A stretch of DNA of 64,000 bases, taken from positions 375,183 through 439,182 of the forward strand of contig JBAZWG010000001.1 in the NCBI GenBank assembly GCA_041660505.1, given 5' to 3'. The notes under the pieces are model-generated. The model was not told the origin of the DNA and searched no databases. It saw only the letters and a list, made by a program, of their open reading frames with translations. Of the stretch, positions 11,512-62,449 are shown one piece after another (position 1 is the first letter of the stretch; every line of letters begins with the position of its first letter). This DNA comes from Minisyncoccota bacterium. GTDB lineage: Bacteria > Patescibacteriota > Minisyncoccia > Phycocordibacterales > JACRKE01. A program made the position numbers and the translations under genes.

Positions 11512-12756
11512 CTATGGCAGGAATTTCTTTTTTCGCAAAAGTTTGTGGTAGGCAATGGCGAAACGATGTGACTCGCTGTTGGCGAGGAGAATTGCATCGG
11601 ACTTGCCTAGTATATTTTTCTTCTCACCCAATATTTCTCGCGGCTTATGGCGTTCATCTTTTACTACGCTGACAACCGGAATAGTAAAACCTTTTTGTTC
11701 TAAAACTTCTTCAGCTGTATTTTTTTGCGGATAACCACCGTCGGTGACTATCAAATCCGGTAGTGGCCATTCGTCATGACCGAGCCTGCGCGTGAGCACC
11801 TCCTTCAAATTCGCAATGTCGTTCCCGCCCGACATTGCCTGCAGCTTCAGTCGCTGGCGGGCGGGCACACTGCCTTCGGCTAACTTTTTTATTTTGAATT
11901 TTCTGTAGCCAGACTTTTTTGCTATTCCGTTTTCAATGACGACCATGACGCCCACACTGTTTTTACCCGATAAGTGTGCAACGTCATACGCTTCTATTCT
12001 AAAATCAGAAGTATCGATATCTGTCTTAATCAAAGAAATATCGTGGATGTGTTGTAACGAAAAAATCTGTCGTTTTTTCTCTCCCGCCTTTTCAAAATCC
12101 TGCGCTTTTGAAAATTCAGCCATTTCTCGTTCGAGCAATTTAATAACTTTCTGTTTCTTACCTTCAAAAAAAAGTTTGATATTTCTGACGGTTTTCATGT
12201 ATTCCGTGCGCGTAACTTTACCAATACAAGTACCAGGACATACGCCCAATTCATAATCAAAACATGGACGCAATACTCCCCTCTCCTTCGGGGAGGGGTC
12301 GGGGGTGGGGTTGTGCGTATTAAAAGGAAATAATTTGCGAATTAATTCATACGCCGCGCGCAAACTTTGCGCACCGGGGAATGGCCCGTAGGTGCCCGCA
12401 CCGCGCGTGAGTAAAATTCTTGGGAACGGATCTCTTGTAATCGTCACATAAAGAAAGCTTTTATCATCTTTATCTTTTGTATTGTAAGGTGGCTGTAATT
12501 TCTTTATCATCTGCGCCTCGAGTATGAGCGCCTCAAGTACCGAATCTGTCTTCACATATCCGATAGTCGTCGCCTCGCCCACCATATTCACGATATGCGC
12601 ACCCCGCGTGTAACCAAGGTCGGATGAGAAATAACTCCGCACTCGTGAGCGCAGAGATGTCGCCTTGCCTACGTACAAAACCGTGGCACCTCGTTTGAAT
12701 AGGTACACCCCCGGCTCTCCGGGCAACTTAATATCCTTGAATTCTTGTATAGTCAT
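11512..12756 (-). CDS. uvrC: Excinuclease ABC subunit C-like (GIY-YIG N-terminus; carries family-2 element insertion)
   Basis: GIY-YIG motif (GVYLFK…LYVGKA…) and UvrC core; 414 aa, short for UvrC. Insertion encodes HNPTPDPSPKERG. Confidence 0.8.
   Translation of the reverse strand: MTIQEFKDIKLPGEPGVYLFKRGATVLYVGKATSLRSRVRSYFSSDLGYTRGAHIVNMVGEATTIGYVKTDSVLEALILEAQMIKKLQPPYNTKDKDDKSFLYVTITRDPFPRILLTRGAGTYGPFPGAQSLRAAYELIRKLFPFNTHNPTPDPSPKERGVLRPCFDYELGVCPGTCIGKVTRTEYMKTVRNIKLFFEGKKQKVIKLLEREMAEFSKAQDFEKAGEKKRQIFSLQHIHDISLIKTDIDTSDFRIEAYDVAHLSGKNSVGVMVVIENGIAKKSGYRKFKIKKLAEGSVPARQRLKLQAMSGGNDIANLKEVLTRRLGHDEWPLPDLIVTDGGYPQKNTAEEVLEQKGFTIPVVSVVKDERHKPREILGEKKNILGKSDAILLANSESHRFAIAYHKLLRKKKFLP
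12276..12313. repeat. Family-2 palindromic element (short form), in-frame inside uvrC
   Basis: cccctctcc-ttcg-gggagggg hairpin plus gggggtgggg tail. Same motif as 27412-27490 and 61900-61987. Confidence 0.7.
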
Positions 12757-12818
12757 CGTTGTTACAGTATCATATCTTTAGTTCCGATCAACAGGCCGAA
12801 TGAAAGGAGGTGAAATCC

Positions 12819-13007
12819 GTGGAGGATGTCATTATTGGCAAGGCCAAGCATCTCTGGAAGGATATCGGGAGCACCCGTCTCTCGAATCCGGAACTATCGG
12901 AGAAGGCCAGAGAGCTTCATGTTCGCCTGGCCGAAGACGGACATGTCGTTTCATTCCCGTTTGTCATGTCCGTTCTCTGCCTAGAATACTGGACAGAAAC
13001 GGGGTGA
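12819..13007 (+). CDS. Small hypothetical protein with perfect extended Shine-Dalgarno
   Basis: gaaaggaggtgaaatccGTG. SD is the full complement of the 16S 3' tail, GTG start, ~62 aa. Confidence 0.35.
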   Translation: MEDVIIGKAKHLWKDIGSTRLSNPELSEKARELHVRLAEDGHVVSFPFVMSVLCLEYWTETG

Positions 13008-13060
13008 CGGAATACCTGTTGAGCACGTCCCGACCCCAAAAAGGTCGGGCGCGCTTGTTA

Positions 13061-15634
13061 TTACTTCTTCAAATGTTTCTTTAAATATTTTCCGGTTTCG
13101 GATTTCGAATCGTTCGCAATGTCTTCTGGCGTGCCTTTGGCAATAACATGCCCGCCTTTGATACCGCCTTCTGGGCCAAGGTCGATGACCCAGTCTGCAG
13201 TCTTTATCACATCCAGGTTGTGTTCTATTACTACCACGGTGTTACCCCTGTCTACCAATCTGTTCAAGACTTTAAGCAAATTTTCGATATCGGCAAAGTG
13301 TAAACCGGTTGTCGGCTCATCAAGTAAGTATAAAGTCTTGGTCGTATCGCGCTTACCAAGTTCGGCCGAGAGCTTCACCCTTTGCGCTTCCCCACCGGAC
13401 AAGGTCGTAGCCGGCTGGCCGAGCTCGAGGTAGCCGAGGCCAACATCGTTCAAGATTTTTAATTTATCGTGCAACCATGGGATATCATCGAAGAACTTTT
13501 CCGCTTCTTCTATTGTCATCTTGAGTATCTGATAAATATTTTTCTTTTTATATTCTACTTCCAATGTTTCGCGATCGAAGCGCTTGCCTCGGCAAACGTC
13601 ACATTCTACATACACCGTAGGCAAGAAGTGCATCTCGATGGCGATAAGCCCGTGACCTTCACAGTTTTCGCAGCGTCCGCCGGGCACATTAAATGAGAAC
13701 CGGCCCGGCTTGTACCCACGCACGCGAGCGTCCTCTGTTGAGGCAAACATATCGCGAATGAATGTCCAAGCACCCACATAGGTGGCCGGGTTAGAACGTG
13801 GTGTCCTGCCTATCGCCGCTTGGTCGATAGTGATAACACGGTCGACGTATTCTGCACCAAGGAGCTCATGACATGGCTGTACTCCGACGCTTCGGTCGGA
13901 GCTGCTCGCGACGCTCGCGTGATATGGATCTTTCGAACGCATCATTTTATACAGCACATCGTATACAAGCGATGACTTGCCCGAGCCGGAGACGCCAGTC
14001 ACTGCCGTGATACGTCTTAACGGTATGTCTACATTTAAATTCTTTAAATTATTCGCCTTGGCTCCTCTAATTTTTAAATATGCGTGACCTTGTTTGATAT
14101 CACGGCGCTTGGGCACTTCTATCTTCATCTCTCCGCGCAAATATTTAAGTGTGGGCGAAGTTTGCTTTTTATCATCTATCAAGTCTGGCATCGGGCCTTC
14201 GGCAATTATCCTCCCACCGTGGATGCCGGCCGCTGGGCCAAAGTCGACTAAATGGTCAGACGACCAAATTGTATCTTCGTCATGCTCGACAACAATAATA
14301 GTGTTGCCAAGATCGCGCAGGTCGTGCAATGTTTTAATAAGCTTCGCATTATCGCGCTGGTGCAAACCTATGGTCGGCTCATCAAGCACGTATAAAGTGC
14401 CGGTTAATCGCGAGCCGACTTGTGAAGCAAGTCTTATTCTCTGCGCTTCCCCACCGGATAAACTGCCGGATTTTCTATCGAGCGTCAAATATTCCAACCC
14501 GACGTCTATCATAAATTTAAGTCTATTCTTGATTTCTTTTATCGGGACTTCTGTAATCTGCGTACCCTTCATGCCAGAGAAAAAAGTAAAAGCCGTATTA
14601 ATAGACATTTCAGAAATGCTCACAATATTTTTTTCTTTTATCAAAACATTCAGTGCCTCTTCGCGCAGGCGCTTGCCGTGACACTTGGGGCACACCTCAT
14701 CGCTCCAAACATCTTTGGTCCCCAAACCGTGGCAGACATCACAAGCGCCGTATGGACTATTGAAAGAAAAGAGGCGTGGCTCAATCTCGGGAAAAGTAAA
14801 ATTATCTTCCGGGCAGGTGAACTTTGACGACAAAAGTAACTCGGTCTTTCCCGTTACTATGTTTACCAGTTCATTTCCATATTTCAAAGCAGACTCAACC
14901 GCCTCAGATAATCTAAGTCTGTTTTCTTTATTACTAAAATCACTCATGGTCGGGATTTCGTCTACCACAAGCTCTATCGTGTGCGCTTTGTAACGAGACA
15001 AATTAATCCGTTCTTTAAGCGAATACCACTCGCCATCAACGCGCACCTCACGAAAGCCAGCATTTAGGAAATCGTAGAGCATCTGATAGTACTCCCCCTT
15101 GCGCCCGCGCACCGCCGGAGCCATAATCTTTATCGAATCGTAAGAATTTTTTACGAGTTGCTTGAGCGTTTTTGAGTTGTCCGAGGTCTCGCCTCGGACA
15201 TGAGAAAATTCGATAATCGCATCCACGATTTGCTCGTTTGTAAGCTTTTTAATCTCCCGACCACAGGTTGGGCAGAATGGCGTACCCGCACGTGCGAACA
15301 AGACGCGCAGATAGTCGTAAATTTCTGTTGTCGTCGCCACTGTGGAACGTGGATTGTGCGAATGGCTCTTCTGATCAATAGAAATAGACGGCGAGAGTCC
15401 ATCTATCTCATCAACGTCCGGCTTATCTAATTTCCCCAAGAATTGCCGCGCATAAGCAGAAAGAGACTCGATATATCGGCGCTGGCCCTCGGCAAATATG
15501 GTGTCGAAGGCGAGAGAAGACTTACCCGAGCCCGAAAGGCCGGTAAAAACGGTCATCTTCCCACGCGGTATCTCTAAATTCACATTCTTGAGATTATGCT
15601 CCCGCGCGCCTTTAATTATGATTTTGTCTTGCAT
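13061..15634 (-). CDS. uvrA: Excinuclease ABC subunit A
   Basis: 857 aa. Two ABC ATPase modules ([10 protein letters not shown]; [11 protein letters not shown]), zinc-finger Cys pairs, LSGGEAQR signatures. Confidence 0.95.
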
Positions 15635-15756
15635 ATACTTTTAACTTTAAAACTTTCTACTTTTTAACTAAAAACAGCCCCTGTTTTAGATCCCTAGGGG
15701 TATATTCACGCCAGACAGTATACCACACAATAACCGTTGACTAAAGCGTCCTTGGC

Positions 15757-16056
15757 TTGTACTATCAACTAATTACAGATCTATTCATTCACGTTTTTCG
15801 ACCAAAAAGGACGGTTCTGATGAGGGCAACTCTAACCGGAGTTTGTGCGCTGACGGCCATCACCCTCGGCGGCACACTGGCAATCGTGGCATACGCACTT
15901 GCCGCGACAGCGATACCGCTGCTTCAGGGCGACCATCTGGCGAGAGCCTACGACGAGTTGTCTCAATTTTTCCGGATAAGCGACAGCCTCATTGGTGTCG
16001 CACTCTGGATTCCGATTTGGTTCATTTTCGAGCAACTCAACCCCCGGCGCGAATGA
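15757..16056 (+). CDS. Small hypothetical membrane protein
   Basis: 99 aa ORF with hydrophobic segments; start uncertain (internal Met at ~15817). Confidence 0.3.
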   Translation: MYYQLITDLFIHVFRPKRTVLMRATLTGVCALTAITLGGTLAIVAYALAATAIPLLQGDHLARAYDELSQFFRISDSLIGVALWIPIWFIFEQLNPRRE

Positions 16057-16136
16057 ATTGAAAATAGCCCCCTGTCCGATTACAGCCTGAACTAGAGAGC
16101 CAGGTATGTCGTCGGCAGGGGGCTACGCGTTTCTTG

Positions 16137-16883
16137 CTATTCTGGAGTAAGACCCCAAAGAATGTCGAAGATAACCTTAAAGGCAGTGACTATTTCCGGA
16201 ATAGCAATAATAATAGCTACAGGATTTGTATGGCTCAAAACCAGCACTTTATCATCATGGATGTCCAAACTATCTTGGAATTGATATCCTTCCGGCAGGT
16301 AGCGTGATTCGCGCAATAGTTGCGGGTCGGCAGGGTCACCGCTACGTGAGTCGGCAGTCAGTAACAATTTCGTACTGATTCCCCGCGCACTGCGCTCATA
16401 ACGAAACTTAAGAAAAAAATCTGGGTCGATTGATTCCCATGTCATCGAGGAAATAATCCGATACCAGCGATCTTTTTTCGATTTTGTCTCATATTCATCC
16501 AAAAGTGATTCGTAGAAAGCTGTAATCTCCTTCTTCCCTTCCAGGTATCTGATTCCCAGCTTCTCGGTTTTAATTTTTTCCTGAGTCGGCAAGGTTGGAA
16601 TAAGAGTCTCGAATAGATTCAGCTTCCTGGAAAAAGCACGCGCCAACCACTCCGGCCGTTGGGCGGCATAATTTCGCTTCCCATTCTTAAAATAGACATT
16701 AACCACACCTTTTTCTGCTAATCCCTGCAAGATAGGGTAGATTGTCGTGCGCCTTAGGCCGATCTCTTTGGCCACCGCCGACGCCTGCGAGGCACCGAGT
16801 TTAAGAAGGGCCAAATAGGCCTGTGCCTCTTGCTCGCCCAACCCTAGATTCTTCAATGCCCTGGTTTGTTCGTGATAAGTCAT
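16137..16883 (-). CDS. TrmB-family transcriptional regulator (copy 1), divergent from the Cys-rich protein gene
   Basis: N-terminal wHTH LGLGEQEAQAYLALLKLGASQASAVAKEIGLRRTTIYPILQGLAEKGVV typical of TrmB, plus C-terminal TrmB-like domain. Confidence 0.8.
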   Translation of the reverse strand: MTYHEQTRALKNLGLGEQEAQAYLALLKLGASQASAVAKEIGLRRTTIYPILQGLAEKGVVNVYFKNGKRNYAAQRPEWLARAFSRKLNLFETLIPTLPTQEKIKTEKLGIRYLEGKKEITAFYESLLDEYETKSKKDRWYRIISSMTWESIDPDFFLKFRYERSARGISTKLLLTADSRSGDPADPQLLRESRYLPEGYQFQDSLDIHDDKVLVLSHTNPVAIIIAIPEIVTAFKVIFDILWGLTPE

Positions 16884-17012
16884 GGTTTAATAGTGTCAAA
16901 ATATTACTACACTTTTAATATTACCGATAATAGCTATATTTTACAAGTATATATTCAAGCATCATTGTTTACAGCTATTTACATAATATACATAATATAT
17001 AATACTAGCGGT

Positions 17013-21368: not shown

Positions 21369-21371
21369 AAT

Positions 21372-26899: not shown

Positions 26900-27078
26900 A
26901 TGTCTTATGTTTATTCTAACGCGCGAAAATCAGCTACGCAACCTCGACAGAACGCTTGCGGACAAGCTTATGCGCAATGCCTTCTATCATCTCCAGCATG
27001 CGCTGTTTTAGAACCTCATTTTCAGAGTTCACCAAGCCCTCTTGCATGTGTTCTTGTGCCATACGTATGCTTTAATAA

Positions 27079-27324
27079 TTAGTTTTTATTGTCTTGTATA
27101 AGCTTCTCCCACTCTTTGTCCTCCTCGGCCTGATACTGCGCCACCTTTTTCTCCAAAAGCTGTGAAAATTCAACCACATCGGAATACGGGAGCTTGGTCA
27201 GCACGTCTTTCATGAGTTCTAGCTCGCTCTGATTCAAGAAATCGAGCGCCTCCATCCACAATTTCTTGTAGTTTTCCGAAAGCGGGCTGCCTCCGATTAA
27301 TTTTTCTACATCTTGTCGCAACAT
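27079..27324 (-). CDS. Small hypothetical protein
   Basis: 81 aa ORF, helical/acidic composition. Confidence 0.4.
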   Translation of the reverse strand: MLRQDVEKLIGGSPLSENYKKLWMEALDFLNQSELELMKDVLTKLPYSDVVEFSQLLEKKVAQYQAEEDKEWEKLIQDNKN

Positions 27325-27411
27325 GATTGTGAATTGTACGCGCCTAAAAATAAATACGCAAGGAAGTTACTCACAAAATGACAGTCCAGCACACGACCGC
27401 AGAACAATCAA

Positions 27412-27490
27412 CCTCACCCCTCCCCCTCTCCGAAAGAGAGGGGTTAAGAAATTCGTTCCCTCCCCTTCGGGGAGGGCTAGGGTGAGGTGG
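27412..27490. repeat. Family-2 nested palindromic element (full form), intergenic
   Basis: Outer IR cctcaccc/gggtgagg enclosing two hairpins ccccctctcc-gaaa-gagagggg and ccctcccc-ttcg-gggaggg. Confidence 0.75.
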
Positions 27491-27492
27491 TC

Positions 27493-28071
27493 TTACAATC
27501 TTTTCTTCGTCTGTCGAACGATAAGCTGTTCGATAAACACAAAGGCGAAGATAGCGATGAGGAAAATATAGCCCGCATTGCGCAGATACTGCTCGCCATC
27601 AGGTAGCCACGAGCCGGCACCGTAGCCTAATCCACCCACGATCAGCATCCAGACGAAGGTGGCGATGATATCGGCACGGAGCAATTCCGGATATGGTATC
27701 TTGAGCGATCCGGCGCGGAGGAGAATCGCATGGTGAAAGCCGTAAGCGAATTTAGAGAAGAAAATAGTATGAAAAGGACGCTCTTTAATATGATTATCAA
27801 AAGGGTGGGTCACCTTGCTCACCCATTTATTAAGCCTGTTGCCGGTCGCGTTGCGAATCCCCTTGCCGAATGAGTACCACACCGCATCGCCGAAGAGCAT
27901 GCAGATGAAGACGGTCATCGCCAAGTTGCCGAGATCGAGATAGCCCAAGCTTGCCACAAAGGCAGCGGTAAAGAGCACGATATCGCCCTCTACAAACATC
28001 CCCACACCCACAATAAAGTAAGCGATAGCCGGCGAAAGAGTAAGATATTGTAATAAAGTCAGATCACCCAT
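27493..28071 (-). CDS. DedA/VTT-family membrane protein
   Basis: 192 aa multi-TM protein with the FVEGD…DedA signature region. Confidence 0.75.
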   Translation of the reverse strand: MGDLTLLQYLTLSPAIAYFIVGVGMFVEGDIVLFTAAFVASLGYLDLGNLAMTVFICMLFGDAVWYSFGKGIRNATGNRLNKWVSKVTHPFDNHIKERPFHTIFFSKFAYGFHHAILLRAGSLKIPYPELLRADIIATFVWMLIVGGLGYGAGSWLPDGEQYLRNAGYIFLIAIFAFVFIEQLIVRQTKKRL

Positions 28072-28136
28072 AAGACACCCCTATTGTACCGCGTTTAGAA
28101 GCAAAAAGAGAAGCTTTCTGTCCACAGAGCGCACCC

Positions 28137-28176
28137 GAAGCTCGGCGTCTGGGAGTGCGACGCCGAGCTTCTTTTG
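28137..28176 (+). terminator. Terminator-like hairpin with no annotated upstream + strand gene
   Basis: gaagctcggcgtc-tgggagtgc-gacgccgagcttc followed by ttttgg. Possibly the 3' end of a small RNA. Confidence 0.4.
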
Positions 28177-28339
28177 GCGCGAACGAGACATATTCTTTCA
28201 TGAGAGAAGGAAAGTAAACCCCACCGCAACCTCCGTTGGTAAACGGCAGGGCGAGGAGAGAGCCCCGACTCGGCAGTACCGGTCGGGATAAATTCCTTCT
28301 CTCGTGAAAAGGCGCGTCGTGGAAAGGTGAGCGCGGGAA

Positions 28340-28789: not shown

Positions 28790-29098
28790 TTATTCTCGCT
28801 CTTTTGCCACGAAGGTCCCGTCCTTTTGGACGTGAACTTCGTAAGAGTAACCCCCTTCAGGGTTACCCCGCTGGGTCGCATAACCCAGCTCAAAAGAGAA
28901 CGCCTGACCCAGGACATCGTACAACTCCCGGGTCAGACGTCGAACATCCTCCAGCTTCGAACCAGAGGACATTCCTACGCCGTTCTCTCCGACTTTATAT
29001 CGGGAGAGAACCTCACTCAGCTTTTCGGCCTGAGCTTCCGAAATTGAGTGGTGGACGTCTGTCCACCATTCAATTTCTATATCGTAGTCTGTCGACAT
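28790..29098 (-). CDS. Small hypothetical protein (GC-rich island)
   Basis: 102 aa ORF preceded by the perfect extended SD gaaaggaggtgaatcgagATG. Confidence 0.55.
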   Translation of the reverse strand: MSTDYDIEIEWWTDVHHSISEAQAEKLSEVLSRYKVGENGVGMSSGSKLEDVRRLTRELYDVLGQAFSFELGYATQRGNPEGGYSYEVHVQKDGTFVAKERE

Positions 29099-29403
29099 CT
29101 CGATTCACCTCCTTTCTGCCGATTTTTGCCCTGACCGCCGTCATGGCGAGTCAAGTCGGGCGCGGAGTCTCGGCACCGCAGTGATTGCTCACTAATAAAC
29201 CCGCAATCTTTCGGTTACGAACTTATTAGTGAGGGTGTCCAGCAAGATTGTGCAATCTTGCTGGACACCCTGATGAGCTGGATTTCCGCCAGCTCGCCGG
29301 CGGCAAGGTCTTCCTCTGTGCGAGAGGCAGGTTCTTGCGTCCCTGGCCGTTTATAAATCAAAACGACAAAAACTTTAGAAGCATAAACCTCCATTTCTGC
29401 AGG

Positions 29404-29438
29404 CAAGGTCTCTCCTCCAAGCGGGAGGTGAGTCCTTG
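29404..29438. repeat. Family-1 palindromic element (compact hairpin form), non-coding
   Basis: aaggtctctcctcc-aagcg-ggaggtgagtcctt. Confidence 0.75.
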
Positions 29439-29594
29439 CCTACCATTTGCTCCTACCACGCCGGAGCGTTAAGCGGTTTTGTGTAGGCACTCGCCCATGC
29501 GGATGGCTACCGCATTTCCCTGTGGTCTCGCTCGCGCATTACTGCGGAGTTCCCCACTCACCTCCGGGAACGAAGGGGGCTCACCAGCCAGGTC

Positions 29595-30017
29595 TCAACG
29601 TGCGCACATCGCGCACTTGCCCTGGTAGCCTGTGAGGTGGTGGTCGGGGCAATAAATATTGCCATACTCCGACCCGCACCCACAGCTCGGGCTGTCATGA
29701 GACCAGCCGGTGGGGAGCTTCTGCCCGCTCGACCTGCCGCCTGCCGCTTTTTCATCAGCGGTTTCGACGTGGTCGAGGACGTGAGCAGGAAGCTCCACCT
29801 CCTCGAGGCTCGCGCGCTCGAAAGCACGTCGGCAATCCTCTTCCGAACAGCGGAAGTAGGTGCTGACGCTCTTCTTGAGCTCGGCCGTCTTCAGAGACAG
29901 CGCGAGCTTGAGCGCCGCCAAGGTCTTGAACACCTCGGCGTGCGTAGCCTCGAAGCTCTTGAGCGCGGCCGTTGCTTCGGCCACCTCGCCCAAGAGCTCT
30001 TCGATTTTCTTCATCAT
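29595..30017 (-). CDS. Hypothetical protein with C-terminal Cys/His cluster (GC-rich island)
   Basis: 140 aa ORF, SD aaaggaggtgaatgATG, C-terminus CGCGSEYGNIYCPDHH…CAMC. Confidence 0.55.
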   Translation of the reverse strand: MMKKIEELLGEVAEATAALKSFEATHAEVFKTLAALKLALSLKTAELKKSVSTYFRCSEEDCRRAFERASLEEVELPAHVLDHVETADEKAAGGRSSGQKLPTGWSHDSPSCGCGSEYGNIYCPDHHLTGYQGKCAMCAR

Positions 30018-30131
30018 TCACCTCCTTTCGTGAAGATGCCATTTTTTCGGAACTAACGTGTCCGGGGCTCTGAACGCCTTTCTTTTTTCGATCGCGAAAA
30101 GAAAAGTAAAAAACGATCGGACGTTGCGGCC

Positions 30132-30779
30132 CTACCTCGTGGGGGTGGTCATCCTCACGAGGTAGTCGAGGTACTCCTCCGCCTTTGCGAGGCGAACGAG
30201 CACCTCTGCCCTACCGTTCACCCAGTCGACCCTTGCGGGCTCCTGGGTGAGTCGGTAGAGCACCCAGACGTCCCCGTCAAAGAGGATGGCCGCGGGGTTG
30301 AGCTTCTGCTCCAACCCCCGGATCCGCTCCTCGATCCGGAAGACGCGGCGCCGGAGCGCTTCGCCTTCCCGAATGGCTACCGCCTGTTCGGCGGTGAAGC
30401 GCGGGGGCAGGGCAATGCCCCACACCCGTGCCTCTGCCTCCAGGCGGCGCGCCTCGCGGAGGTAATCCACGAGGGCGCCGCCCTGGACCTCCAGCGGCTC
30501 CTGCTCCCCCGTTTGGGGGTTCAGAATCCGCTGGAACCGGCTGTCGACCCGGCGGCAGTCCCGGTAGTAATACCGGGACTGCCACCCAGGGTGGGCGAGG
30601 TCTAGATACCCTCGCCCCGGGTCAGCGGCCAGGAGCGCCGACGTCCTGGCCGTGAGGAGGATGAAGAGCTGCCGGAGCAACCCCTCATACCTCCTCGGGA
30701 TCCGCCTTTCGGCGCGTTTGCGCGCCAGCGGATCGTTCACGTCGATGGGATTCATAGTACCCATCCTTTCCAAGAGCAC
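30132..30779 (-). CDS. Hypothetical protein (GC-rich island)
   Basis: 215 aa ORF (GTG at 30779, or ATG at 30755 with a partial SD). GC-rich codon usage distinct from the flanks. Confidence 0.45.
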   Translation of the reverse strand: MLLERMGTMNPIDVNDPLARKRAERRIPRRYEGLLRQLFILLTARTSALLAADPGRGYLDLAHPGWQSRYYYRDCRRVDSRFQRILNPQTGEQEPLEVQGGALVDYLREARRLEAEARVWGIALPPRFTAEQAVAIREGEALRRRVFRIEERIRGLEQKLNPAAILFDGDVWVLYRLTQEPARVDWVNGRAEVLVRLAKAEEYLDYLVRMTTPTR

Positions 30780-31333
30780 GTTGCTCCTGAATTTAATCGC
30801 GAAAAAATAATTTTGATTCGTGTGTAAATTCAGAAGCCCTTCAGCTTTTTTGCGGAAAGCGGAAGGGTTCGTGCGAATTATGATATGTGTGCCGTATCAA
30901 AATTCTAATTGTGCCCAATCAGACGCCTGCATATCCGGGACTTTGGATGCTGGGGCAGGCCGCCGACTTGCCGGGGTAGATCGACCCGGCAGCGGCCGGG
31001 GAGTTTCCTGCGCGTTGGGCGCAGGTCTTCTCCCAGTAACTGGCCACGACCTCCTTGGTCGTGGCGATGGCCAATTTGACTTGATAGTCCAATATCCTTT
31101 TATCGAATAAATTTTCTGGTTTCATATATTTGTTATTTATTATTCTAATTCTTCCTTGTTCTCACCACAAGTTTTACTTGCGATGAGAATCAGGAGGAGG
31201 AGCGAGGATACTGTGCAGTATTTCGCTCCCCTCGTGAGTGCTTGTCCCCGTGCAGGGGACCTTTTTTGTGCTCGTTTCTTTTTTCCGAAAAAAGAAACGA
31301 TGCCGAAAGAAAAACTATTTAAGTTTGCGGGGG

Positions 31334-31666
31334 TTAGGCCCGCTTCAGCCCCTTGCAGCCGACGGGCTGGCCGTCGGCGCCCCTGACCAAGTCGCCCGGG
31401 GCGAACACGTCGCCCCGCCCGGCGACTGTCGGGTGAGCGGCCACCAGGCCGCTCACCACGTAACCCACCCCCTCCTCGGGGGCCGGGAGGCCAGTCACCT
31501 CCCCGTAGGAGGCACGGCAGGTGGGGAAGCCTGCCACCTCCTTGTCCGCCACGAAGGTGGCGGCGGTCCGGGCAACCTGCCCGGACGGGTCGATGGACCC
31601 GACCTGGGCGTTCCCGCCCAGGTCTAAAATGTTGATCCGGTGCGGGGTGAGGTTGACGAGACGCAT
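31334..31666 (-). CDS. Hypothetical protein (GC-rich island)
   Basis: 110 aa from MRLVNLTPHRINI…, SD ggaggaaagg 9 nt upstream of ATG. Confidence 0.5.
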   Translation of the reverse strand: MRLVNLTPHRINILDLGGNAQVGSIDPSGQVARTAATFVADKEVAGFPTCRASYGEVTGLPAPEEGVGYVVSGLVAAHPTVAGRGDVFAPGDLVRGADGQPVGCKGLKRA

Positions 31667-31838
31667 AATGCGTCCTTTCCTCCGATTTATGCCTCGGAGC
31701 ACGGCTTTGGATTCAAGACCACGTTGGGCCCTGAAATTTTCACTCGAATTTTCAAGTGGAAATTTCAGGGTAAAGGATATTTATAAGAACATTCTTCCGT
31801 GAACGTTTTCCTCACGACTAAAAACACAAGGTCGGTGT

Positions 31839-31903
31839 CCGAGGTCTCACCTCTGGCCTGTCTGCTTATTGCAGACTTGGGTTGGCCTGAGGAGAGACCT
31901 CGG
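31839..31903. repeat. Family-1 palindromic element (long-loop form), non-coding
   Basis: ccgaggtctcacctc-(35 nt)-gaggagagacctcgg. Confidence 0.75.
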
Positions 31904-32660
31904 ACGCGCAAACATTTTGCGTTCTTGGTCGTGAGGCTGAACATATGTTCAGCCTCCTTCTTTCCCTGTCGAACAACGCCTTGGCTATTTGCCTCGGACT
32001 TACTCGCTCGCAGGGTATTCTGTTGTCAAATAACCCGGTCGTTCTGTTGCATGCTATTACCCATACAACTTCAGATTCTCTTCGTTACTCCCCGCCTGCC
32101 ATCGCCTGAAGCTCAGGCTTTGGCGGGCAGGTCTCCTCAAAAGTTCTCTCCTCTTTTGGATTAACGATGCCGTTTGGTTCTCTCCTCACTTCTATCAGTG
32201 AGTGTCGGGGACGGAAGTTGGATGTCCTTCTGTCCCGACGCACTCATTGCTAGCGCATATACTGAATGTATCATTGCCTCCGCTTCTCTCTTTCTTAACC
32301 CTACTTGCCGGTTAGGGCGACCGTCCGGGGCTTTGGTATTGGCATACCTCGCCTTGTCCGGATCAGAGTTGAACGGTGTTACATTCTGTCGTATATGACC
32401 CTTGCGGGATTTTTGTAAAGACCTAATGCTTCCCTCTCCTCCTTGTCCGCCGGTGAGGCGGGTTATCTTATATAGAGAGAAGATTGTGTCCGACTTGCTG
32501 TCCGCTCCAATCTTCTATCTGTATTTTTTAACTGGCATAATCATACGCTAGCCTTGCCAGATTGTCAATACTATGTGATAGTTTATGGCATTTAGCGTCA
32601 TAAAGCCTTGATATTAGCCAAAATAGTGGCTTTATTGTGTTATCAGAGTGTCAAACTGTA

Positions 32661-37021: not shown

Positions 37022-39388
37022 TTGATGAGGCCCGGGCCGAAACCAAAGATATACATTTCTACTGAGTGGTCTAGCAACCTCGCTTATGCAGTTGGTCTTA
37101 TCACTGCTGATGGCTGTCTGTCAAAGGATGGCCGCCATATTGACTTTACATCAAAAGACCCAGATCAAATAGAAACCTTTATCAGGTGCCTCGGACTTCA
37201 CTCACTTGTTAGACCAAAGAAATCCGGTGCTGGAAGGTTTGCATTTCGAACCCAGTTTGGGAATGTATCGTTTTACAGATTTCTATTAGGCATTGGACTA
37301 ACGCCCGCAAAATCGAAAACTATTTCGAAACTTGAAATTCCCGACGAATATTTCTGGGATTTCATGCGTGGATATTTCGATGGTGACGGCACGAGCTTTT
37401 CGTATTTTGATCCGGTATTTCCTAAAAGCTATCGTTTTTATGTTGCTTTCGCTTCGGCAAGTGAGCCATATCTACTTTGGCTACAAGAGAAGGCATATAG
37501 GTCCGCAGGGTTAAAAGGCTACATTAACAGAGGCGTTAACCCTTCAAGCCTACAACTCAAGTATGCGAAGAAAGAAGCAATAGTCTTATGTCAAAAAATG
37601 TATTATGATGATAGCGCTCCCAGACTCCAAAGAAAATACGAGAAAATCTTGGATTCGATGAGCATTATTAACAGCAAACGCCGGGGTGGTGAAATTGGTA
37701 TACACGCAGCGTTCAGAACGCTGTGGGGGCAACCCCATGGAGGTTCAAGTCCTCTCTCCGGCACTTTTAACTCATTTCACGTGAAAAATAAGAAAGAATC
37801 TCCAGCTTACTATATCCCCTCCCATGTTCTGGGGGTTGTAACTACTTTACAAAAGGCCGGCTTCGAGGCATATCTCGTCGGTGGCTGTGTGCGCGATATA
37901 TTGATGGAGAACAAGCCAAAAGACTGGGATGTTACGACAAACGCCCGCCCGGAGCAGATCCAAGCCCTATTTAACGAGACTTTCTATGAAAACGAGTATG
38001 GCACGGTCGGCGTCGTGGTAGAAGACCTTTCACGTGAAAAGCTCAATATCGTTTCACAAGAAACGTTTGATGAGCTTTCACGTGAAAGCATGGAAGCCTT
38101 AGAGGTCGAACCTCGGGCTCCCAGAGGTTCGACCTCGGGCGCAGACCCAAGCCCGAAAGAGGTGATCGAGGTTACACCTTATAGGCTAGAAACCAAGTAT
38201 TCCAACTTTCGCCATCCGGACGCTGTCACCTTTAGCACCAGTCTGGGGGACGACCTGAAACGCCGGGATCTGACCATCAATGCCATCGCTTATGACCCCA
38301 ATAGCCCTAAAGGACAGTTTATAGACCCCTTTAACGGTCTAAAGGACATAAAGGACATGGTAATCCGCGCCGTAGGAGAGCCCTCGGACCGCTTCTGCGA
38401 GGATGCTTTGCGCATGATGCGTGCGGTGCGCCTGGCCGCCCAGCTCGGCTTTATGATTGACCCTGCGACCGAGCAAGCGATTGTTGCGAACAAGGCGCTT
38501 ATCACTAAGATAGCGGCCGAGCGTATCCATGACGAACTTATGAAGCTTTTAAATACCGAGTACGCGGTTGATGGCATTAGGTATCTAAAGATTACCGGCC
38601 TTCTTGAACTTATAATCCCTGAACTTCTTGAGGGGATAGGCATAGAGCAGAGAGGGGAGCATATCTATGACGTCTGGGAGCATAACCTCAAGTCGCTCGA
38701 ACACGCCGTCAAGAAGGGTTGGCCATTTCACGTGAGACTTGCAGTGCTGTTACACGACGTGGGCAAGCCGCGTACGCGCTTGCGCGATGAGGAGAGGCAA
38801 ATCTGGACATTCCATGGCCATGATGTGGTCGGTGGCAAGATGACCAAAAAGATACTTGAACGGCTCAAATTTTCACGTGAAATGATTGATAATATTTCTA
38901 AACTAGTGCGTTATCATCTTTTCTTCTCCGATACCGATAAAATCACGCTTTCTGCCGTACGCCGGATGATTCGCAACGTCGGCGCTGATTTGATATGGGA
39001 TTTAATGAAGGTGCGCCAGTGCGACAGAATAGGCACGGGCCGGCCCAAAGAAAGTCCTTATAGACTGCGCAAATACGAAGCGATGATAGAAGAGGCAATG
39101 CGCGATCCAATATCGGTGCAGATGTTAAAGATTGACGGCGCGAAGATAATGGAAATAGGGGAGATGGACCCCGGGCCGAAGATTGGCTGGGTGTTGCACG
39201 CCTTACTTGAGGAAGTACTAGAAGACCCGGCTAAGAATACGACAGAGTATCTGGAGACTCATACTAAAAAATTATTGGCACTTTCTGACAAGGAATTACA
39301 AGAACTCGGTGAAGCGGGAAAGGAGAAGAAGTCAGGGCTTGAAGAAGCGGCTATAGAAGAAATCAACAAGAGACACTACGTGAAGTAA
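37022..39388 (+). CDS. cca: CCA-adding enzyme (tRNA nucleotidyltransferase, HD domain) with an N-terminal LAGLIDADG homing-endonuclease-like domain and internal repeat-derived insert
   Basis: Residues ~1-210: two LAGLIDADG motifs (LAYAVGLITADGCL; FMRGYFDGDGTSF). Residues ~270-788: pol-beta nucleotidyltransferase (GGCVRDILM…DWDVTT), RRDLTINA, HD domain (LLHDVGKP). One continuous 788-aa ORF. Confidence 0.85.
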   Translation: MMRPGPKPKIYISTEWSSNLAYAVGLITADGCLSKDGRHIDFTSKDPDQIETFIRCLGLHSLVRPKKSGAGRFAFRTQFGNVSFYRFLLGIGLTPAKSKTISKLEIPDEYFWDFMRGYFDGDGTSFSYFDPVFPKSYRFYVAFASASEPYLLWLQEKAYRSAGLKGYINRGVNPSSLQLKYAKKEAIVLCQKMYYDDSAPRLQRKYEKILDSMSIINSKRRGGEIGIHAAFRTLWGQPHGGSSPLSGTFNSFHVKNKKESPAYYIPSHVLGVVTTLQKAGFEAYLVGGCVRDILMENKPKDWDVTTNARPEQIQALFNETFYENEYGTVGVVVEDLSREKLNIVSQETFDELSRESMEALEVEPRAPRGSTSGADPSPKEVIEVTPYRLETKYSNFRHPDAVTFSTSLGDDLKRRDLTINAIAYDPNSPKGQFIDPFNGLKDIKDMVIRAVGEPSDRFCEDALRMMRAVRLAAQLGFMIDPATEQAIVANKALITKIAAERIHDELMKLLNTEYAVDGIRYLKITGLLELIIPELLEGIGIEQRGEHIYDVWEHNLKSLEHAVKKGWPFHVRLAVLLHDVGKPRTRLRDEERQIWTFHGHDVVGGKMTKKILERLKFSREMIDNISKLVRYHLFFSDTDKITLSAVRRMIRNVGADLIWDLMKVRQCDRIGTGRPKESPYRLRKYEAMIEEAMRDPISVQMLKIDGAKIMEIGEMDPGPKIGWVLHALLEEVLEDPAKNTTEYLETHTKKLLALSDKELQELGEAGKEKKSGLEEAAIEEINKRHYVK
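37775..38902. repeat. Cluster of five TTTCACGTGAAA 12-bp palindromes inside the CCA gene
   Basis: Copies at 37775, 38028, 38076, 38726 (tttcacgtgaga) and 38891, in two different codon phases. Confidence 0.8.
38103..38140. repeat. Family-3 paired palindrome element, in-frame inside the CCA gene
   Basis: gaggtcgaacctcggg-ctccca-gaggttcgacctcggg, encoding LEVEPRAPRGSTSG. Confidence 0.7.
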
Positions 39389-54955: not shown

Positions 54956-54959
54956 TCTT

Positions 54960-54995: not shown

Positions 54996-55002
54996 TTAAA
55001 TT

Positions 55003-55836: not shown

Positions 55837-55896
55837 AAAATCGACCCCCTTTCGAGTTTATCCACACGACATTACGCCTGTCAAGACACCCTTATT

Positions 55897-56479: not shown

Positions 56480-56521
56480 ATCACTATAATATCATTTTTG
56501 TACAATTTGTACAAATTCAAA

Positions 56522-58900: not shown

Positions 58901-58904
58901 AAAT

Positions 58905-59324
58905 TTATTTTACCAAACCTCGTGATTTCATCTCACTATAAAGTTTATCGGTAAGGGCGTCGTGGAAGACGTCGAGCAGGAAAGGGTCTTCTTCTATAAC
59001 CTGGCGCAGTGTGGCCTGGATGCCGTTATGGAACGCTTGCGCGACGTAGCCGTTAACTTTAGCGACCGTCGCATCATCCACAGTATCGAGATAACTTTTG
59101 CTACCGGCTTGGGCTTTCTTGACAGCGGCTTGCCCCGAGCTTGTCGAGGGGGCTGGCACTTGCGTAGTATCATCGGTTGTGGCAGATGGGGCACTCCTCG
59201 GTAGGAGCTCGCTGATTTTCTCGGTGAGCGCGGCATGCAACTGCTCTTTAGCGTCAGATGCCGGTCTCTCACTTGCAACCGCTTGTGTTAATGCCGCGAG
59301 TTCTGCGTCGAAATTTGAGTCCAT
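58905..59324 (-). CDS. Hypothetical protein upstream of the coupling-protein gene
   Basis: 139 aa ORF, 4 nt from the next gene, probably same operon. Confidence 0.45.
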   Translation of the reverse strand: MDSNFDAELAALTQAVASERPASDAKEQLHAALTEKISELLPRSAPSATTDDTTQVPAPSTSSGQAAVKKAQAGSKSYLDTVDDATVAKVNGYVAQAFHNGIQATLRQVIEEDPFLLDVFHDALTDKLYSEMKSRGLVK

Positions 59325-59338
59325 AAATTTTTTGATTT

Positions 59339-59374
59339 AAGGTTCAACCTTTTAGGTGCTTAAGGTTGAACCTT
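59339..59374. repeat. Family-3 paired palindrome element, intergenic (divergent promoter region)
   Basis: aaggttcaacctt-ttaggtgctt-aaggttgaacctt. Confidence 0.8.
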
Positions 59375-59409
59375 TGCCAGTATAACACGCTCATGACTCA
59401 CTTCGTAAT

Positions 59410-60048
59410 ATGAATAGTCCACAGCTTGTGCGAAAATTAATTGACTCTAAATACAAAAGAGAGGATAATGTATACATGCCCACCACACAGACAACAACAC
59501 CCCAAGATAAGTTCCCCGGCCTGATAGCGAAATTCCTGACGCCACCAGCAGAAAGTATCGAGACGGAGAGCTTTTCATCGCTCGAAGAAAAAGCAAAAGA
59601 AAAACAAACTGCCATTAAAGCGCTTAATGAGGCGATTACGACAGGCGAGCGCGACCTGAACAACAAAAGAGATCAGTTAAAAATCGCGAATGGAGAGCTA
59701 CAGAAGATCAATGACCGGATCGCCAGCGCAGCCGAAAAAGAAATGAAGGATTTACGGGACAAGCTCCATGAGATGGAGAAACGATATCCAAATTTGAAGC
59801 CGGAAACAAACACGGTTGTTGCACCGAAGGCTCCGGAAATAAAAGTTACTCCGGAAGTTATCCCAGACAACTTAGCGCTTGAGCCCGTAGTAAAACTCGT
59901 GAAAGCACCGGAACAAAAAGATACTCCGATCGCAATCAAAGTTGAGAAAAAAGTTGCAGCTCAAGTTCGCGCACCCGCAGAAACTAGTGATCCAGTAAAA
60001 GAAAAGCTTGTTGAGCTGGGTGAAGAATACTTCAAAAATGTAAATTAA
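59410..60048 (+). CDS. Coiled-coil hypothetical protein
   Basis: 212 aa, Lys/Glu-rich coiled-coil composition. Confidence 0.45.
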   Translation: MNSPQLVRKLIDSKYKREDNVYMPTTQTTTPQDKFPGLIAKFLTPPAESIETESFSSLEEKAKEKQTAIKALNEAITTGERDLNNKRDQLKIANGELQKINDRIASAAEKEMKDLRDKLHEMEKRYPNLKPETNTVVAPKAPEIKVTPEVIPDNLALEPVVKLVKAPEQKDTPIAIKVEKKVAAQVRAPAETSDPVKEKLVELGEEYFKNVN

Positions 60049-60049
60049 T

Positions 60050-60316
60050 ATGAGCAAGTACGCATTCTTAGACACACCATTAGGGGGAACGACAGGGGCA
60101 CAAATCCCGCCGTTAAAGCTTTGGACCGTCGGCACAATCATCGAGAAATCCGAGAATAAGGCTTACCAGACGCCCAAGAATCCAGTCTACGCACTCGGCC
60201 TATATCTCAAGAAGCGCTTCGGCAACAAGCCGGAGGTTATGAGCTTAACACTTGCTGACTGTGCGAAAAAGTATCCGGCAACTCCCGCTGATTTTGCAGG
60301 AGACAGTGTGGAATAA
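60050..60316 (+). CDS. Small hypothetical protein
   Basis: 88 aa ORF immediately after the previous stop. Confidence 0.4.
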   Translation: MSKYAFLDTPLGGTTGAQIPPLKLWTVGTIIEKSENKAYQTPKNPVYALGLYLKKRFGNKPEVMSLTLADCAKKYPATPADFAGDSVE

Positions 60317-60337
60317 ACAGTATGTTATACTGGCTGG

Positions 60338-62449
60338 ATGCAGAATAATCATCAAGAGTTGAATCCGGCACAAGCCGAGGTGGCCTCATATCTACGAGGG
60401 CCGCTTTTGATTGTGGCCGGCGCTGGCGCAGGCAAGACCAAAACCATTGCGCATCGCATTCTGAACCTTATACAGTCCGGCATACCAGCACACCAAATAC
60501 TGGCAATAACTTTTACCAACAAAGCGGCGAAAGAAATGCGGGACCGCGTCCTGCATCTTATTCAATCCGAATCAGCCAAACTTTCAACTCCCTTCGTTTC
60601 CACCTTCCACTCCCTCGGCGTTTATATAATAAAAGAACAAGCATACCGTCTTGGCCTCACGCGCTACTTCACCATTTATGATCAAGACGATTCTCTATCC
60701 GCTATCAAGCGCGCGCTAAAAAGCGAGGGGCTTGACCCGAAACAGTATGAACCAAAGCGCCTGCAGAACGCCATCTCGCGAGAGAAAAACAATCTGGTTA
60801 CGCATGACTTATATTCAGAACAACATTTGGGTGAATATTGGGGCGATATCGTAGCCAAAGTCTGGAAAGCGTATGAAAAGATTTTAGAAAAAGATAAAGC
60901 CCTCGACTTCGATGACTTGATTGTGAAAACAGTCTGGCTCTTTGAGAAATTTCCTGAAGTGCAAAAATATTATGCCAACAAATGGCACTATATACATATA
61001 GACGAGTATCAGGATACGAACGTGGCGCAGTATGCGCTATCGCACTTGCTCGCAAAATCACATAGGAATATCTGCGTGGTCGGAGACACCGATCAAGCCA
61101 TCTACGGTTGGCGCGGAGCAGATTATCAGAATATTCTCAAATTCGAGAGTGAGTATCCTGACGCGAAGGTAGTCTTGCTCGAGCAGAACTATCGCTCGAC
61201 ACAGACGATACTAGAAGCGGCGAACAGCATAATAAGCAAGAATACTTTACGCAAAGAGAAGAATTTATTTACGGCGAACGCCAAGGGCGAGCAAGTTACA
61301 ATCTACCAAGCGGGGGATGGCCCTCGCGAGGCTCATTGGGTAGCCAAGAAATGCGAGGAATTAATTAGAGGCCGAGGTGAGTCCTCCGGTAAAAGCGGAG
61401 GTCTCTCCTCGGCCACAACGGGCATAAACCCCAATAATATAGCCATATTGTACCGAATGAACTTCTTGTCGCGCTTGTTTGAAGAAGCTTTCCTGACGCG
61501 CGGAGTGCCATATCATTTGCTCGGCACAGCCTTCTACTCGCGCAAAGAGGTTAAAGATACCCTAGCCTATATCCGCCTTGCGCTTAATTCTGAAGACACG
61601 GCAAGTTTATTGCGTATTATAAATGTGCCGGCACGCGGGATAGGCGATGTAACAGCAGAAAAAATCGTAGTGGGCAAAGAAGATGAGCTCCCGGCAAGCA
61701 TGCGCGACAAACTTTCTAGCTTCCGCAGTATTCTTGCAGATATTAAAGCAAAGTGCTTGAGCGAGACACCGTCTAACGCCGTGCGCTATGCGATAAAGAG
61801 AAGCGGGATAGAAGCGATGTATGCTGATGGTAAAGAGGAAAGCGAAGAGAGACTGGAAAACGTACGCGAGCTCGCAACCCTTGCTACGAGATATGACAAC
61901 CTCACCCCCGGCCCCTCTCCGAAGGAGAGGGGAGAACTAAATGACGCCCCCTCCCTTTCGGGGAGGGGGATGGGGGGCGAGGTGACCGCGGGCATCGAAA
62001 AGTTTCTAGAAGACACAGCGTTGCTCTCCGATCAAGATTCTTTGATGAATAAAAAAGAAGGCGTGCGGATGATGACCGTGCACGCGGCGAAAGGTTTGGA
62101 ATTCGATTATGTATTTATCGTTGGACTCGAAGGCGACATCTTCCCGCACAGGAGGATGAACGATGACGCGAGCATCGAACAGGAAGAAGAAGAGCGAAGA
62201 TTATTTTATGTCGCGCTCACGCGCGCGAGGAAGAAAGTTTTCTTAACGCACTGTCTCATTCGCACCATCTTCGGCTCGCAGAAAATTCAGTCACCATCGG
62301 AATTTATTGGCGATATTCCGGAAGATTTAGCAATTACCGAAGGGGCAGAAAACGGCTATGCAGAGCCATTTTCCCTGCCTCGCCGACAGGCAGGTAGCAA
62401 TAGCGACGGCGAAGTGGTGATAGAATGGGATATATTTAAACGAAGATAA
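60338..62449 (+). CDS. pcrA: ATP-dependent DNA helicase PcrA/UvrD family, with two in-frame palindromic-element inserts
   Basis: Motifs Q, I (AGAGAGKT), II (DEYQDTN), III, IV, V, VI (VHAAKGLEFD). Inserts encode RGRGESSGKSGGLSSA and NLTPGPSPKERGELNDAPSLSGRGMGGEVT. Confidence 0.9.
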   Translation: MQNNHQELNPAQAEVASYLRGPLLIVAGAGAGKTKTIAHRILNLIQSGIPAHQILAITFTNKAAKEMRDRVLHLIQSESAKLSTPFVSTFHSLGVYIIKEQAYRLGLTRYFTIYDQDDSLSAIKRALKSEGLDPKQYEPKRLQNAISREKNNLVTHDLYSEQHLGEYWGDIVAKVWKAYEKILEKDKALDFDDLIVKTVWLFEKFPEVQKYYANKWHYIHIDEYQDTNVAQYALSHLLAKSHRNICVVGDTDQAIYGWRGADYQNILKFESEYPDAKVVLLEQNYRSTQTILEAANSIISKNTLRKEKNLFTANAKGEQVTIYQAGDGPREAHWVAKKCEELIRGRGESSGKSGGLSSATTGINPNNIAILYRMNFLSRLFEEAFLTRGVPYHLLGTAFYSRKEVKDTLAYIRLALNSEDTASLLRIINVPARGIGDVTAEKIVVGKEDELPASMRDKLSSFRSILADIKAKCLSETPSNAVRYAIKRSGIEAMYADGKEESEERLENVRELATLATRYDNLTPGPSPKERGELNDAPSLSGRGMGGEVTAGIEKFLEDTALLSDQDSLMNKKEGVRMMTVHAAKGLEFDYVFIVGLEGDIFPHRRMNDDASIEQEEEERRLFYVALTRARKKVFLTHCLIRTIFGSQKIQSPSEFIGDIPEDLAITEGAENGYAEPFSLPRRQAGSNSDGEVVIEWDIFKRR
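61372..61412. repeat. Family-1 palindromic element in-frame inside pcrA
   Basis: ccgaggtgagtcctcc-ggtaaaagc-ggaggtctctcctcgg. Confidence 0.85.
61900..61987. repeat. Family-2 nested palindromic element in-frame inside pcrA
   Basis: cctcacccc…cccctctcc-gaag-gagagggg…ccccctccc-tttc-gggaggggg…gaggtgacc. Confidence 0.8.

Follow-up and report, generated by a model that had tools for sequence, protein, structure and literature searches.

A GC-rich palindromic element occurs at three sites in the stretch of DNA analyzed here, a 64-kb window (48% G+C) of the 719-kb genome of a Candidatus Paceibacterota bacterium (candidate phyla radiation, CPR, or Patescibacteria) recovered as a metagenome-assembled genome (MAG). 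Full copies lie between two genes and inside the helicase gene pcrA, and a half copy lies inside uvrC. We are inclined to regard this element as a non-autonomous miniature repeat of the BoxC/PIT/TM class and as a probable derivative of a larger insertion element bearing a DUF559 nuclease gene. BoxC/PIT repeats are abundant in many bacteria, and their function and mode of spread have been unexplained since the 1990s. The DUF559 link provides a testable candidate for the enzyme behind them and, at the same time, a candidate function for the large DUF559 family, including YcjD of Escherichia coli.

The three sites had been proposed in a first-pass annotation of the window. All of them were confirmed, with refined limits: the intergenic full copy at 27411-27488, the pcrA full copy at 61899-61983 and the solo unit (half copy) of uvrC at 12276-12312, the last two in frame with their genes. 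The translations given at that time were also correct, PcrA containing YDNLTPGPSPKERGELNDAPSLSGRGMGGEVTAGIEK (in the wider context ATRYDNLTPGPSPKERGELNDAPSLSGRGMGGEVTAGIEKF) and UvrC containing HNPTPDPSPKERGVLRPC (in the wider context FNTHNPTPDPSPKERGVLRPCF). Both full copies align end to end. The uvrC copy, read on the coding strand (AACCCCACCCCCGACCCCTCCCCGAAGGAGAGGGGAG), aligns in the same frame with the left half of the pcrA copy (AACCTCACCCCCGGCCCCTCTCCGAAGGAGAGGGGAG); MAFFT had misplaced it because of its palindromic sequence. The hairpin CCCTCTCC-N3-6-GGAGAGGG is present once in the window and CCCTCCC-N3-6-GGGAGGG twice, only at these sites. Neither motif appeared in 100 dinucleotide-preserving shuffles of the window, and a search of the window for all GC-rich perfect hairpins recovered those of the element. 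The proposal of a repeat family is supported. An identical uvrC copy was found in a separate assembly (Logan SRR18595301, L125) and is thus no assembly artifact.

A full copy (78-85 nt) is composed of two units of about 33-37 nt that are inverted, with their tails pointing outward, around an AT-rich spacer of 14-16 nt; its outer 9-10 nt and the entire ~33-nt units are inverted repeats. On its G-rich strand the unit reads as a pyrimidine arm CCCCTCTCC, a loop of 3-5 nt, a purine arm GGAGAGGGG, a linker of 2-3 nt and a G/T/A tail GGGGTGAGG followed by T (complete G-strand oligonucleotide, CCCCTCTCCTTCGGAGAGGGGCCGGGGGTGAGGT). Reversed, the tail is GGAGTGGGG and mirrors the purine arm, with G facing G and either A or T facing A. 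Each full copy combines one GGAGAGGGG-type and one GGGGAGGG-type unit, and the loops differ (GAAG, GAAA, TTCG, TTTCG and others).

The same unit is found in distant lineages. A scan with the hairpin alone (CCCCTCYCCGAARGAGAGGGG) over 185,579 species, each represented by one genome, gave at least 120 loci and 133 listed matches, a sample biased to one hairpin sequence. Most listed loci belong to Bacteroidota; others are from Desulfobacteraceae, Anaerolineaceae, Ignavibacteria, Moduliflexus, Nitrotoga, SAR324 and two Patescibacteria MAGs. The tail CCTCACCCC did not figure in the search pattern; it was present with at most one mismatch within 16 nt upstream of 112 of the 133 listed matches (84%, against a background of 0.24%), most commonly across a 3-nt linker. 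The unit also occurs in 29 viral-contig stretches, several of them with multiple copies. That one unit sequence variant is common to several phyla goes beyond the survey of these repeats by Holder et al. (2015).

The association with DUF559 emerged from the encoded peptide. The 30-residue insert had six matches among 1.84 billion representative proteins; one of them (P0241) is a trehalase with several unit-encoded peptides and an inserted DUF559 domain, bracketed by the same tails-outward pair. When this domain was compared by tblastn with all fetched loci, DUF559 was found adjoining the unit at seven of them (L011, L012, L031, L051, L066, L075 and L095). The layout is the same at all seven and contains no stop codon: host open reading frame (ORF), left unit (tail then hairpin), DUF559 of about 118 residues, right unit (hairpin then tail), host ORF. 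Pfam family PF04480 was detected with E values of 1e-31 to 1e-37 within leucyl-tRNA synthetase (LeuRS), MetH and trehalase. In LeuRS, the cassettes of L066 and L095, which are Patescibacteria MAGs (L095 being itself a Candidatus Paceibacterota), share their position with that of Tannerella (L075), between NWIGRSEGAEIxF and FTTRPETIFG; Ferruginibacter (L012) carries a cassette at a second position. In MetH, L031 and L051 are occupied at one position and L011 (Nitrotoga) at another. The solo unit in uvrC of the window has an almost exact counterpart in the left end of the L066 cassette (AACCCCACCCCCGACCCCCTCCCCGAAGGAGAGGGGGAG). The inserted nucleases retain the invariant FRRQ, DF.C, E.DG..H and R..N positions in common with E. 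coli YcjD. This recurrent presence of the unit at both ends of a small DUF559 cassette in essential genes is another advance over Holder et al. (2015). The literature searched held no description of such an arrangement, judging papers that mention DUF559 by their titles and abstracts, and gave no match to the literal unit strings or to "PSPKERG".

A test independent of the unit sequence gave a concordant picture. Among 63 DUF559-related loci from viral contigs, 61 had sufficient flanks, and strong inverted repeats flanked DUF559 in 11 of these 61, compared to 1 of 61 in the best of ten shuffles. All 11 positives rank among the 12 relatives closest to the query, and all their repeats are pyrimidine/purine hairpins, several with mirror tails. 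They include a locus with an E. coli-type BoxC (L179), one with the repeat CCTCGCCC-TGCAA-GGGAGAGG-ATAA-GGGTGAGGG (L172) and a DUF559 cassette in frame in a class I tRNA synthetase (L169).

Because the layout in the window (tails outward, a GGAGAGGGG-type unit on the left, a GGGGAGGG-type unit on the right and a short spacer) equals that of the cassette minus its ORF, the window copies are best read as miniature derivatives. The ancestor would have been an element whose two unit ends bracketed a Vsr-fold DUF559 nuclease of about 118 residues and which sat in the reading frame of essential genes. A deletion between the inverted repeats would then have removed the nuclease ORF and left the miniature pair; deletions of this kind at palindromic pairs have been observed (Holder et al., 2015, PMC4666352). 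Insertion would presumably proceed by nuclease cutting followed by host repair or recombination. A DDE-type transposase is disfavored because direct reading of the three window copies and of the composites in L031, L066, L075 and L095 revealed no flanking direct repeat (target-site duplication). More tentatively, one could extend this scheme to the whole class: BoxC/PIT-type triplex repeats may be the terminal repeats of widespread, unrecognized DUF559-nuclease insertion elements. These would sit in the reading frame of essential genes (LeuRS, MetH, other class I tRNA synthetases, trehalase) in CPR, Bacteroidota and Proteobacteria, and would decay into solo units and miniature pairs like those of pcrA and uvrC in the window.

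Several observations weigh against a derivation from DUF559 elements. By tblastn, no DUF559 gene is present in the 64-kb window, and the short spacers there leave no room for recognizing remnants of a nuclease ORF. Only 7 of the 133 listed unit occurrences adjoin DUF559, most being solo or paired units without it. The exact two-hairpin pair was found in metagenomes at 13 loci, all from the single project JFJP01, and these match pairs of Desulfobacteraceae bin_101. In E. coli, neither a triplex in vivo nor a link to mobile elements has been found for the related repeats (PMC4666352). There, one of the 23 BoxC copies of strain K-12 lies near the DUF559 gene ycjD, and at a distance: BoxC no. 9 of Holder et al. 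is 168 nt downstream of ycjD (L168, NC_000913.3 1351204-1351760), in the expected orientation, hairpin then tail on the ycjD sense strand. No unit was found upstream of ycjD in K-12, and this proximity provides weak support for the DUF559 link. The ycjD interval is presumably where BoxC was first noticed, beside fabI (envM). Finally, the association itself is equally compatible with DUF559 genes homing into palindromes that were already in place.

This last scenario deserves consideration, even if we find it rather unlikely. Palindromic pairs would come first and spread independently of any enzyme, for instance by replication slippage, template switching at structure-prone DNA or gene conversion; DUF559 nucleases would recognize the palindrome and home into its center, and the window copies would be unoccupied targets. 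The large excess of solo and paired units over DUF559-containing ones fits such an order of events, as does the position of DUF559, always exactly between both units. Type II-like nucleases typically recognize palindromes, and the repeats have been tied to local instability with no transposon association (PMC4666352). However, where DUF559 is missing from a LeuRS site examined, the units are missing as well: L012 is empty at the first site, and L066, L075 and L095 are empty at the second. Pair and nuclease therefore appear to arrive together. In addition, the spread of the pair itself would be left unexplained.

The mirror symmetry between arm and tail is the conserved feature of the unit. A generic triplex scan (8-nt arms, at most one mismatch in the stem and at most one in the tail) found exactly four of the five window units and none in 20 shuffles. 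At least six purine-arm variants with matching tails occur among the 120 listed loci, and the A/T positions of the tail follow the A positions of the arm: GGAGAGGGG goes with GGAGTGGGG, GGGGAGGGG with GGGGTGGGG, GGGAGAGGG with GGGAGTGGG and GGGGAAGGA with GGGGTAGGA, further variants also being present. Hairpins with a triplex-compatible tail on one side numbered 143 at 9 of 9 positions and 21 at 8 of 9. Arm and tail have also changed together between the orthologous uvrC units of the window (GGGGAGGGG/GGGGTGGGG) and of the relative L123 (GGAGAGGGG/GGGGTGAGG), each of which retains one imperfect Watson-Crick pair. Judged from these sequences, the unit as single-stranded DNA could fold into a purine-motif intrastrand triplex, possibly also in vivo; a full copy can also form a long hairpin or cruciform. 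A pyrimidine-motif triplex on the C-rich strand, with the tail CCTCACCCC over the stem CCCCTCTCC, was considered and dropped, as its conserved central A is a mismatch, and the purine-motif reading on the G strand was preferred because all triads are canonical there. Apparent "hybrid" units (CCCCTCCCC...GGAGAGGGG) were reassigned on the G strand as GGGGAGGGG/GGGGTGGGG units with one G.T wobble.

In the intergenic copy, the left unit (27411-27443, minus strand) reads on the plus strand as tail ACCTCACCCC, linker and hairpin CCCCTCTC-CGAAA-GAGAGGGG. Its G-rich, triplex-type strand is the minus strand, and the scan found neither Watson-Crick nor reverse-Hoogsteen mismatches. The 14-nt AT-rich spacer (27444-27457, TTAAGAAATTCGTT) occupies the position where the larger relatives hold the DUF559 ORF. 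The right unit (27458-27488, plus strand) consists of the hairpin CCCTCCCC-TTC-GGGGAGGG, the linker CTA and the tail GGGTGAGGT, which is complementary to the left tail and so creates the outer inverted repeat; it has one reverse-Hoogsteen mismatch. A VTT/DedA-family ORF (27493-28071, minus strand) has its stop codon 4 nt from the end of the copy, and the next ORF on the minus strand starts at 27324. In the pcrA copy, the left unit (61899-61932, minus strand) is ACCTCACCCCCGG-CCCCTCTCC-GAA-GGAGAGGGG, without mismatches of either kind, and is read in the pcrA frame as LTPGPSPKERG. The right unit (61947-61983, plus strand) has the hairpin CCCCCTCCC-TTTCG-GGGAGGGGG and a degenerate tail GGGGGGCGAGGT, encodes PSLSGRGMGGEV and fails the scan with at least two tail mismatches. 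The uvrC unit (12276-12312, G-rich strand plus) is CTCCCCTCTCC-TTC-GGGGAGGGG-TC-GGGGGTGGGG-TT, read by the gene on the minus strand as NPTPDPSPKERG; it has one G.T wobble in the stem and no tail mismatch.

This architecture is that of a known class. The TM-ECO motif of Holder et al. (2015, PMC4666352), with consensus CCCTCNCCC-N3-6-GGGNGAGGG-N3-GGGNGAGGG, is identical with what was called BoxC in the 1990s and PIT by Hoyne et al. (2000). It belongs to the class II (purine-motif) intrastrand triplexes, forms in vitro on a single strand and was undetected in vivo. E. coli K-12 has 23 copies, always intergenic, among them five inverted pairs with two subtypes in each. No transposon link and no promoter or terminator activity were found, and the motif goes together with local instability. 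In 262 proteobacterial genomes 3610 copies were counted, and cyanobacteria have GC-rich motifs in abundance (PMC4666352). The element of the window shares with BoxC/PIT the unit of about 35 nt, its 9-nt C/T arm, short loop, 9-nt G/A arm, 2-3 nt linker and 9-nt G/T/A mirror tail, the triads G.G-C, A.A-T and T.A-T, the frequent conserved stem imperfection and the occurrence as single units or as inverted pairs of two subtypes. BoxC was reportedly also described by Bergler in 1992, and to our knowledge no transposase goes with BoxC/PIT or with the element of the window.

There are also differences. The register is shifted (CCCCTCTCC instead of CCCTCTCCC, with arms and tail CCCCTCTCC / GGAGAGGGG / GGGGTGAGG), and the published TM-ECO pattern had no match in the window. 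Tails point outward here, whereas the pairs of E. coli K-12, as we read Table 1 of PMC4666352, have them inward. Whereas all E. coli copies are intergenic, two of the three sites described here lie in frame within genes; the host belongs to the CPR and has a genome of ~0.7 Mb, and a DUF559 link is unreported for BoxC. From its sequence, the element is thus a distinct variant within the BoxC/PIT structural class and not TM-ECO itself, because its register is shifted and the published pattern is unmatched even though architecture, triads and pairing are alike.

Both coding copies are insertions, as the first-pass annotation had supposed. The 703-residue pcrA/uvrD-type helicase gene (60338-62449, plus strand), which was examined by Pfam, orthologue alignment and an AlphaFold model, carries the full copy at residues ~521-549. 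The segment is missing in each of the 13 aligned orthologues, four of them at 73-81% identity, and amounts to 26 extra residues; the closest empty site (L001) reads YDSFGNEGMEKF. Short-form uvrC (11512-12756, minus strand; 414 residues with GIY-YIG, UVR and RNase H-like domains by Pfam) lacks the unit in 10 of 11 aligned orthologues. Only L123 (82% identical) has it, followed there by a different palindrome with a 13-bp stem, and it has no counterpart in L124 (75% identical) and nine others. Several orthologues carry other, unrelated insertions in the same loop. A third gene is affected in a relative, L002, whose ksgA contains a unit in frame; this unit is missing in the relative L001, which has an intergenic unit at another place. 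Such in-frame invasion of coding sequence in a minimal CPR genome (pcrA, uvrC, and ksgA in a relative) likewise extends the picture of Holder et al. (2015).

PcrA has kept its Pfam helicase domains and invariant motifs, in agreement with the earlier claim that its helicase motifs were not lost, and residues 524-549 are modeled as coil of predicted confidence (pLDDT) below 50 between the helices 500-519 and 551-563. Direct translation shows that the unit is open in five of six frames and gives Pro/Gly/Ser-rich peptides; coding copies in other genomes occur in both orientations and in at least four reading frames. Selection would account for survival in frame: the insertions in pcrA and uvrC probably persist because they fall in disordered loops at the protein surface, have a length that is a multiple of three, are open in five of six frames and are just read as Pro/Gly/Ser-rich linkers. 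When peptides such as LTPxPSPKERG, PLSFGEGxGVR and SPLLRRGAGGEV occur in predicted proteins, they mark the DNA element and should not be annotated as protein motifs.

Palindromic insertions in frame are known from Rickettsia (Ogata et al., 2000, summarized in PMC10969869). The element resembles these Rickettsia palindromic elements (RPEs) as palindromic selfish DNA placed in frame in unrelated housekeeping genes of a reduced genome, the extra peptide being tolerated at the protein surface. In contrast, RPEs are AT-rich, measure ~100-150 bp and have no triplex-type mirror tail, and the host here is a Candidatus Paceibacterota. We know of no nuclease-bearing full-length relative of RPEs and of no sequence kinship between them and the element.

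[quoted passage not shown] Unlike MITEs, the element has no target-site duplication at the three window copies or the four composites read. It also differs from both groups in that the larger relative with its ends encodes a Vsr-fold DUF559 nuclease instead of a transposase, and from REPs in lacking their GTAG/CGTC tag (PMC3733652). A role as homing endonucleases of fractured genes and group I introns has been suggested for Vsr-fold nucleases (Dassa et al., 2009, PMC2677866). Like these and like inteins, the cassettes place a small nuclease gene in conserved essential genes at recurrent positions, one LeuRS site being occupied in both CPR and Bacteroidota. However, the cassettes have structured GC-rich terminal repeats, which distinguishes them from Vsr-like homing endonucleases and inteins. 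Their host genes, unlike those of inteins and group I introns, are neither split nor spliced and are read through. Pfam gave only DUF559/MTES_1575 in the inserted segments and no Hint domain, Rfam detected no intron at the cassettes, and the intein junction residues (Cys/Ser, His-Asn) are absent at the junctions. A group II intron domain (Rfam RF00029, 68 bits) at 5651-5725 of L031, ~700 nt downstream of the MetH with the cassette, is probably unrelated.

It was suggested in the first-pass annotation that the tetraloop hairpins indicate a function at the RNA level. This is unsupported, as the conserved feature is the mirror between purine arm and tail, a signature of purine-motif DNA triplexes. 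The nested two-hairpin form proposed there is the minimum-energy fold only of the intergenic copy as DNA; as RNA, the predicted minimum-energy fold of a full copy is one long hairpin that pairs the left unit with the right unit. We consider it very improbable that GNRA/UUCG-type hairpins act as a terminator, mRNA stabilizer or regulatory structure. As RNA, the full copies do form stable folds (-48 to -61 kcal/mol, z about -4.4 to -4.8), and the intergenic copy lies 4 nt past a stop codon. However, that copy is not followed by a T tract and was not picked by a terminator scan of 27000-28200, Rfam has no match at the element, and the uvrC solo unit has no significant RNA structure (z -1.5 to -1.6). 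Moreover, the loops vary, coding copies of other genomes use either orientation and several frames, the covariation links purine arm and tail and not the Watson-Crick stem or the loop, PIT elements showed neither promoter nor terminator activity, and RNA is unable to form purine-motif triplexes (PMC4666352). That the coding segments are ordinary lineage-specific low-complexity loops under protein-level selection, with incidental DNA palindromy, would agree with their location in variable loops where other lineages have different short insertions, but we give this idea practically no credence, as it is effectively refuted by the intergenic copy in the window and by the use of the same ~35-nt unit in different frames of unrelated genes and phyla, and shuffles contain no such structure.

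Other palindromes share the same genes. The second, different palindromic insert that had been noted in pcrA is present at 61370-61414 (plus strand), an imperfect palindrome GGCCGAGGTGAGTCCTCCG-GTAAAAG-CGGAGGTCTCTCCTCGGCC read in frame as GRGESSGKSGGLSS. It is absent in 12 of 13 orthologues, P0050 having an unrelated insertion in that loop, and is modeled as coil of pLDDT below 50 (residues 347-360). In the pcrA of L002, the loop that holds the 78-nt element in the window contains instead, at ~5330-5360, a different perfect hairpin with a 10-bp stem, ACTTGGCGCT-CAC-AGCGCCAAGT, also in frame (NLALTAPSE). A third repeat type, CCCGCCCG-26 nt-CGGGCGGG, lies in uvrC at 11824-11865 (minus strand) and is read in frame as PARQRLKLQAMSGG, only in this genome among 12 orthologues. 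Nearly identical DNA encodes TPARQRLKPQAMSGR in the C-terminal region of the L002 PcrA, at a position where the window PcrA has the shorter SLPRRQAGS. The palindrome next to the unit in L123 (~8300-8350, GAGGTTCGACCTC...GAGGTCGAACCTC) encodes EVRPLGVRGRTSK, P0125 has two such peptides, and the uvrC loop is an insertion hotspot (L123, P0125, P0127 and P0128).

Units may also be embedded in longer repeats. In Chitinophagaceae MFD04212, they lie within tandem arrays with periods of 138 bp (L023, 5432-6000) and 109 bp (L035, 30-159), so amplification within larger tandem repeats is another route open to them. In Flavobacterium and viral contigs (L059, L085, L091, L104, L118, L129, L137 and L144), the unit ends longer composite repeats, which take the form of a unit plus AGCCAGGAACGGGTACAGT... 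or of a unit plus AGCAGCTACACTC...GAGTGAGCCGG... plus an inverted unit, ~130 nt in total; one viral contig has at least eight copies.

Two further features of the window are worth recording. The region ~29000-32000 has 55-60% G+C compared to 47% elsewhere, with dense perfect GC-rich hairpins at 30554-31624. It contains only short overlapping ORFs without Pfam match and gave no Rfam match even at E 0.01; it may be of foreign origin or hold an RNA or protein region that escaped annotation. A 788-residue ORF at 37022-39388 (plus strand) is of the CCA-adding/poly(A) polymerase type only from about residue 379. Its upstream frame crosses a tRNA-Leu(CAG) gene (37680-37764) and has a weak LAGLIDADG_3 match at residues 20-88; the true start is probably downstream of the tRNA-Leu gene.

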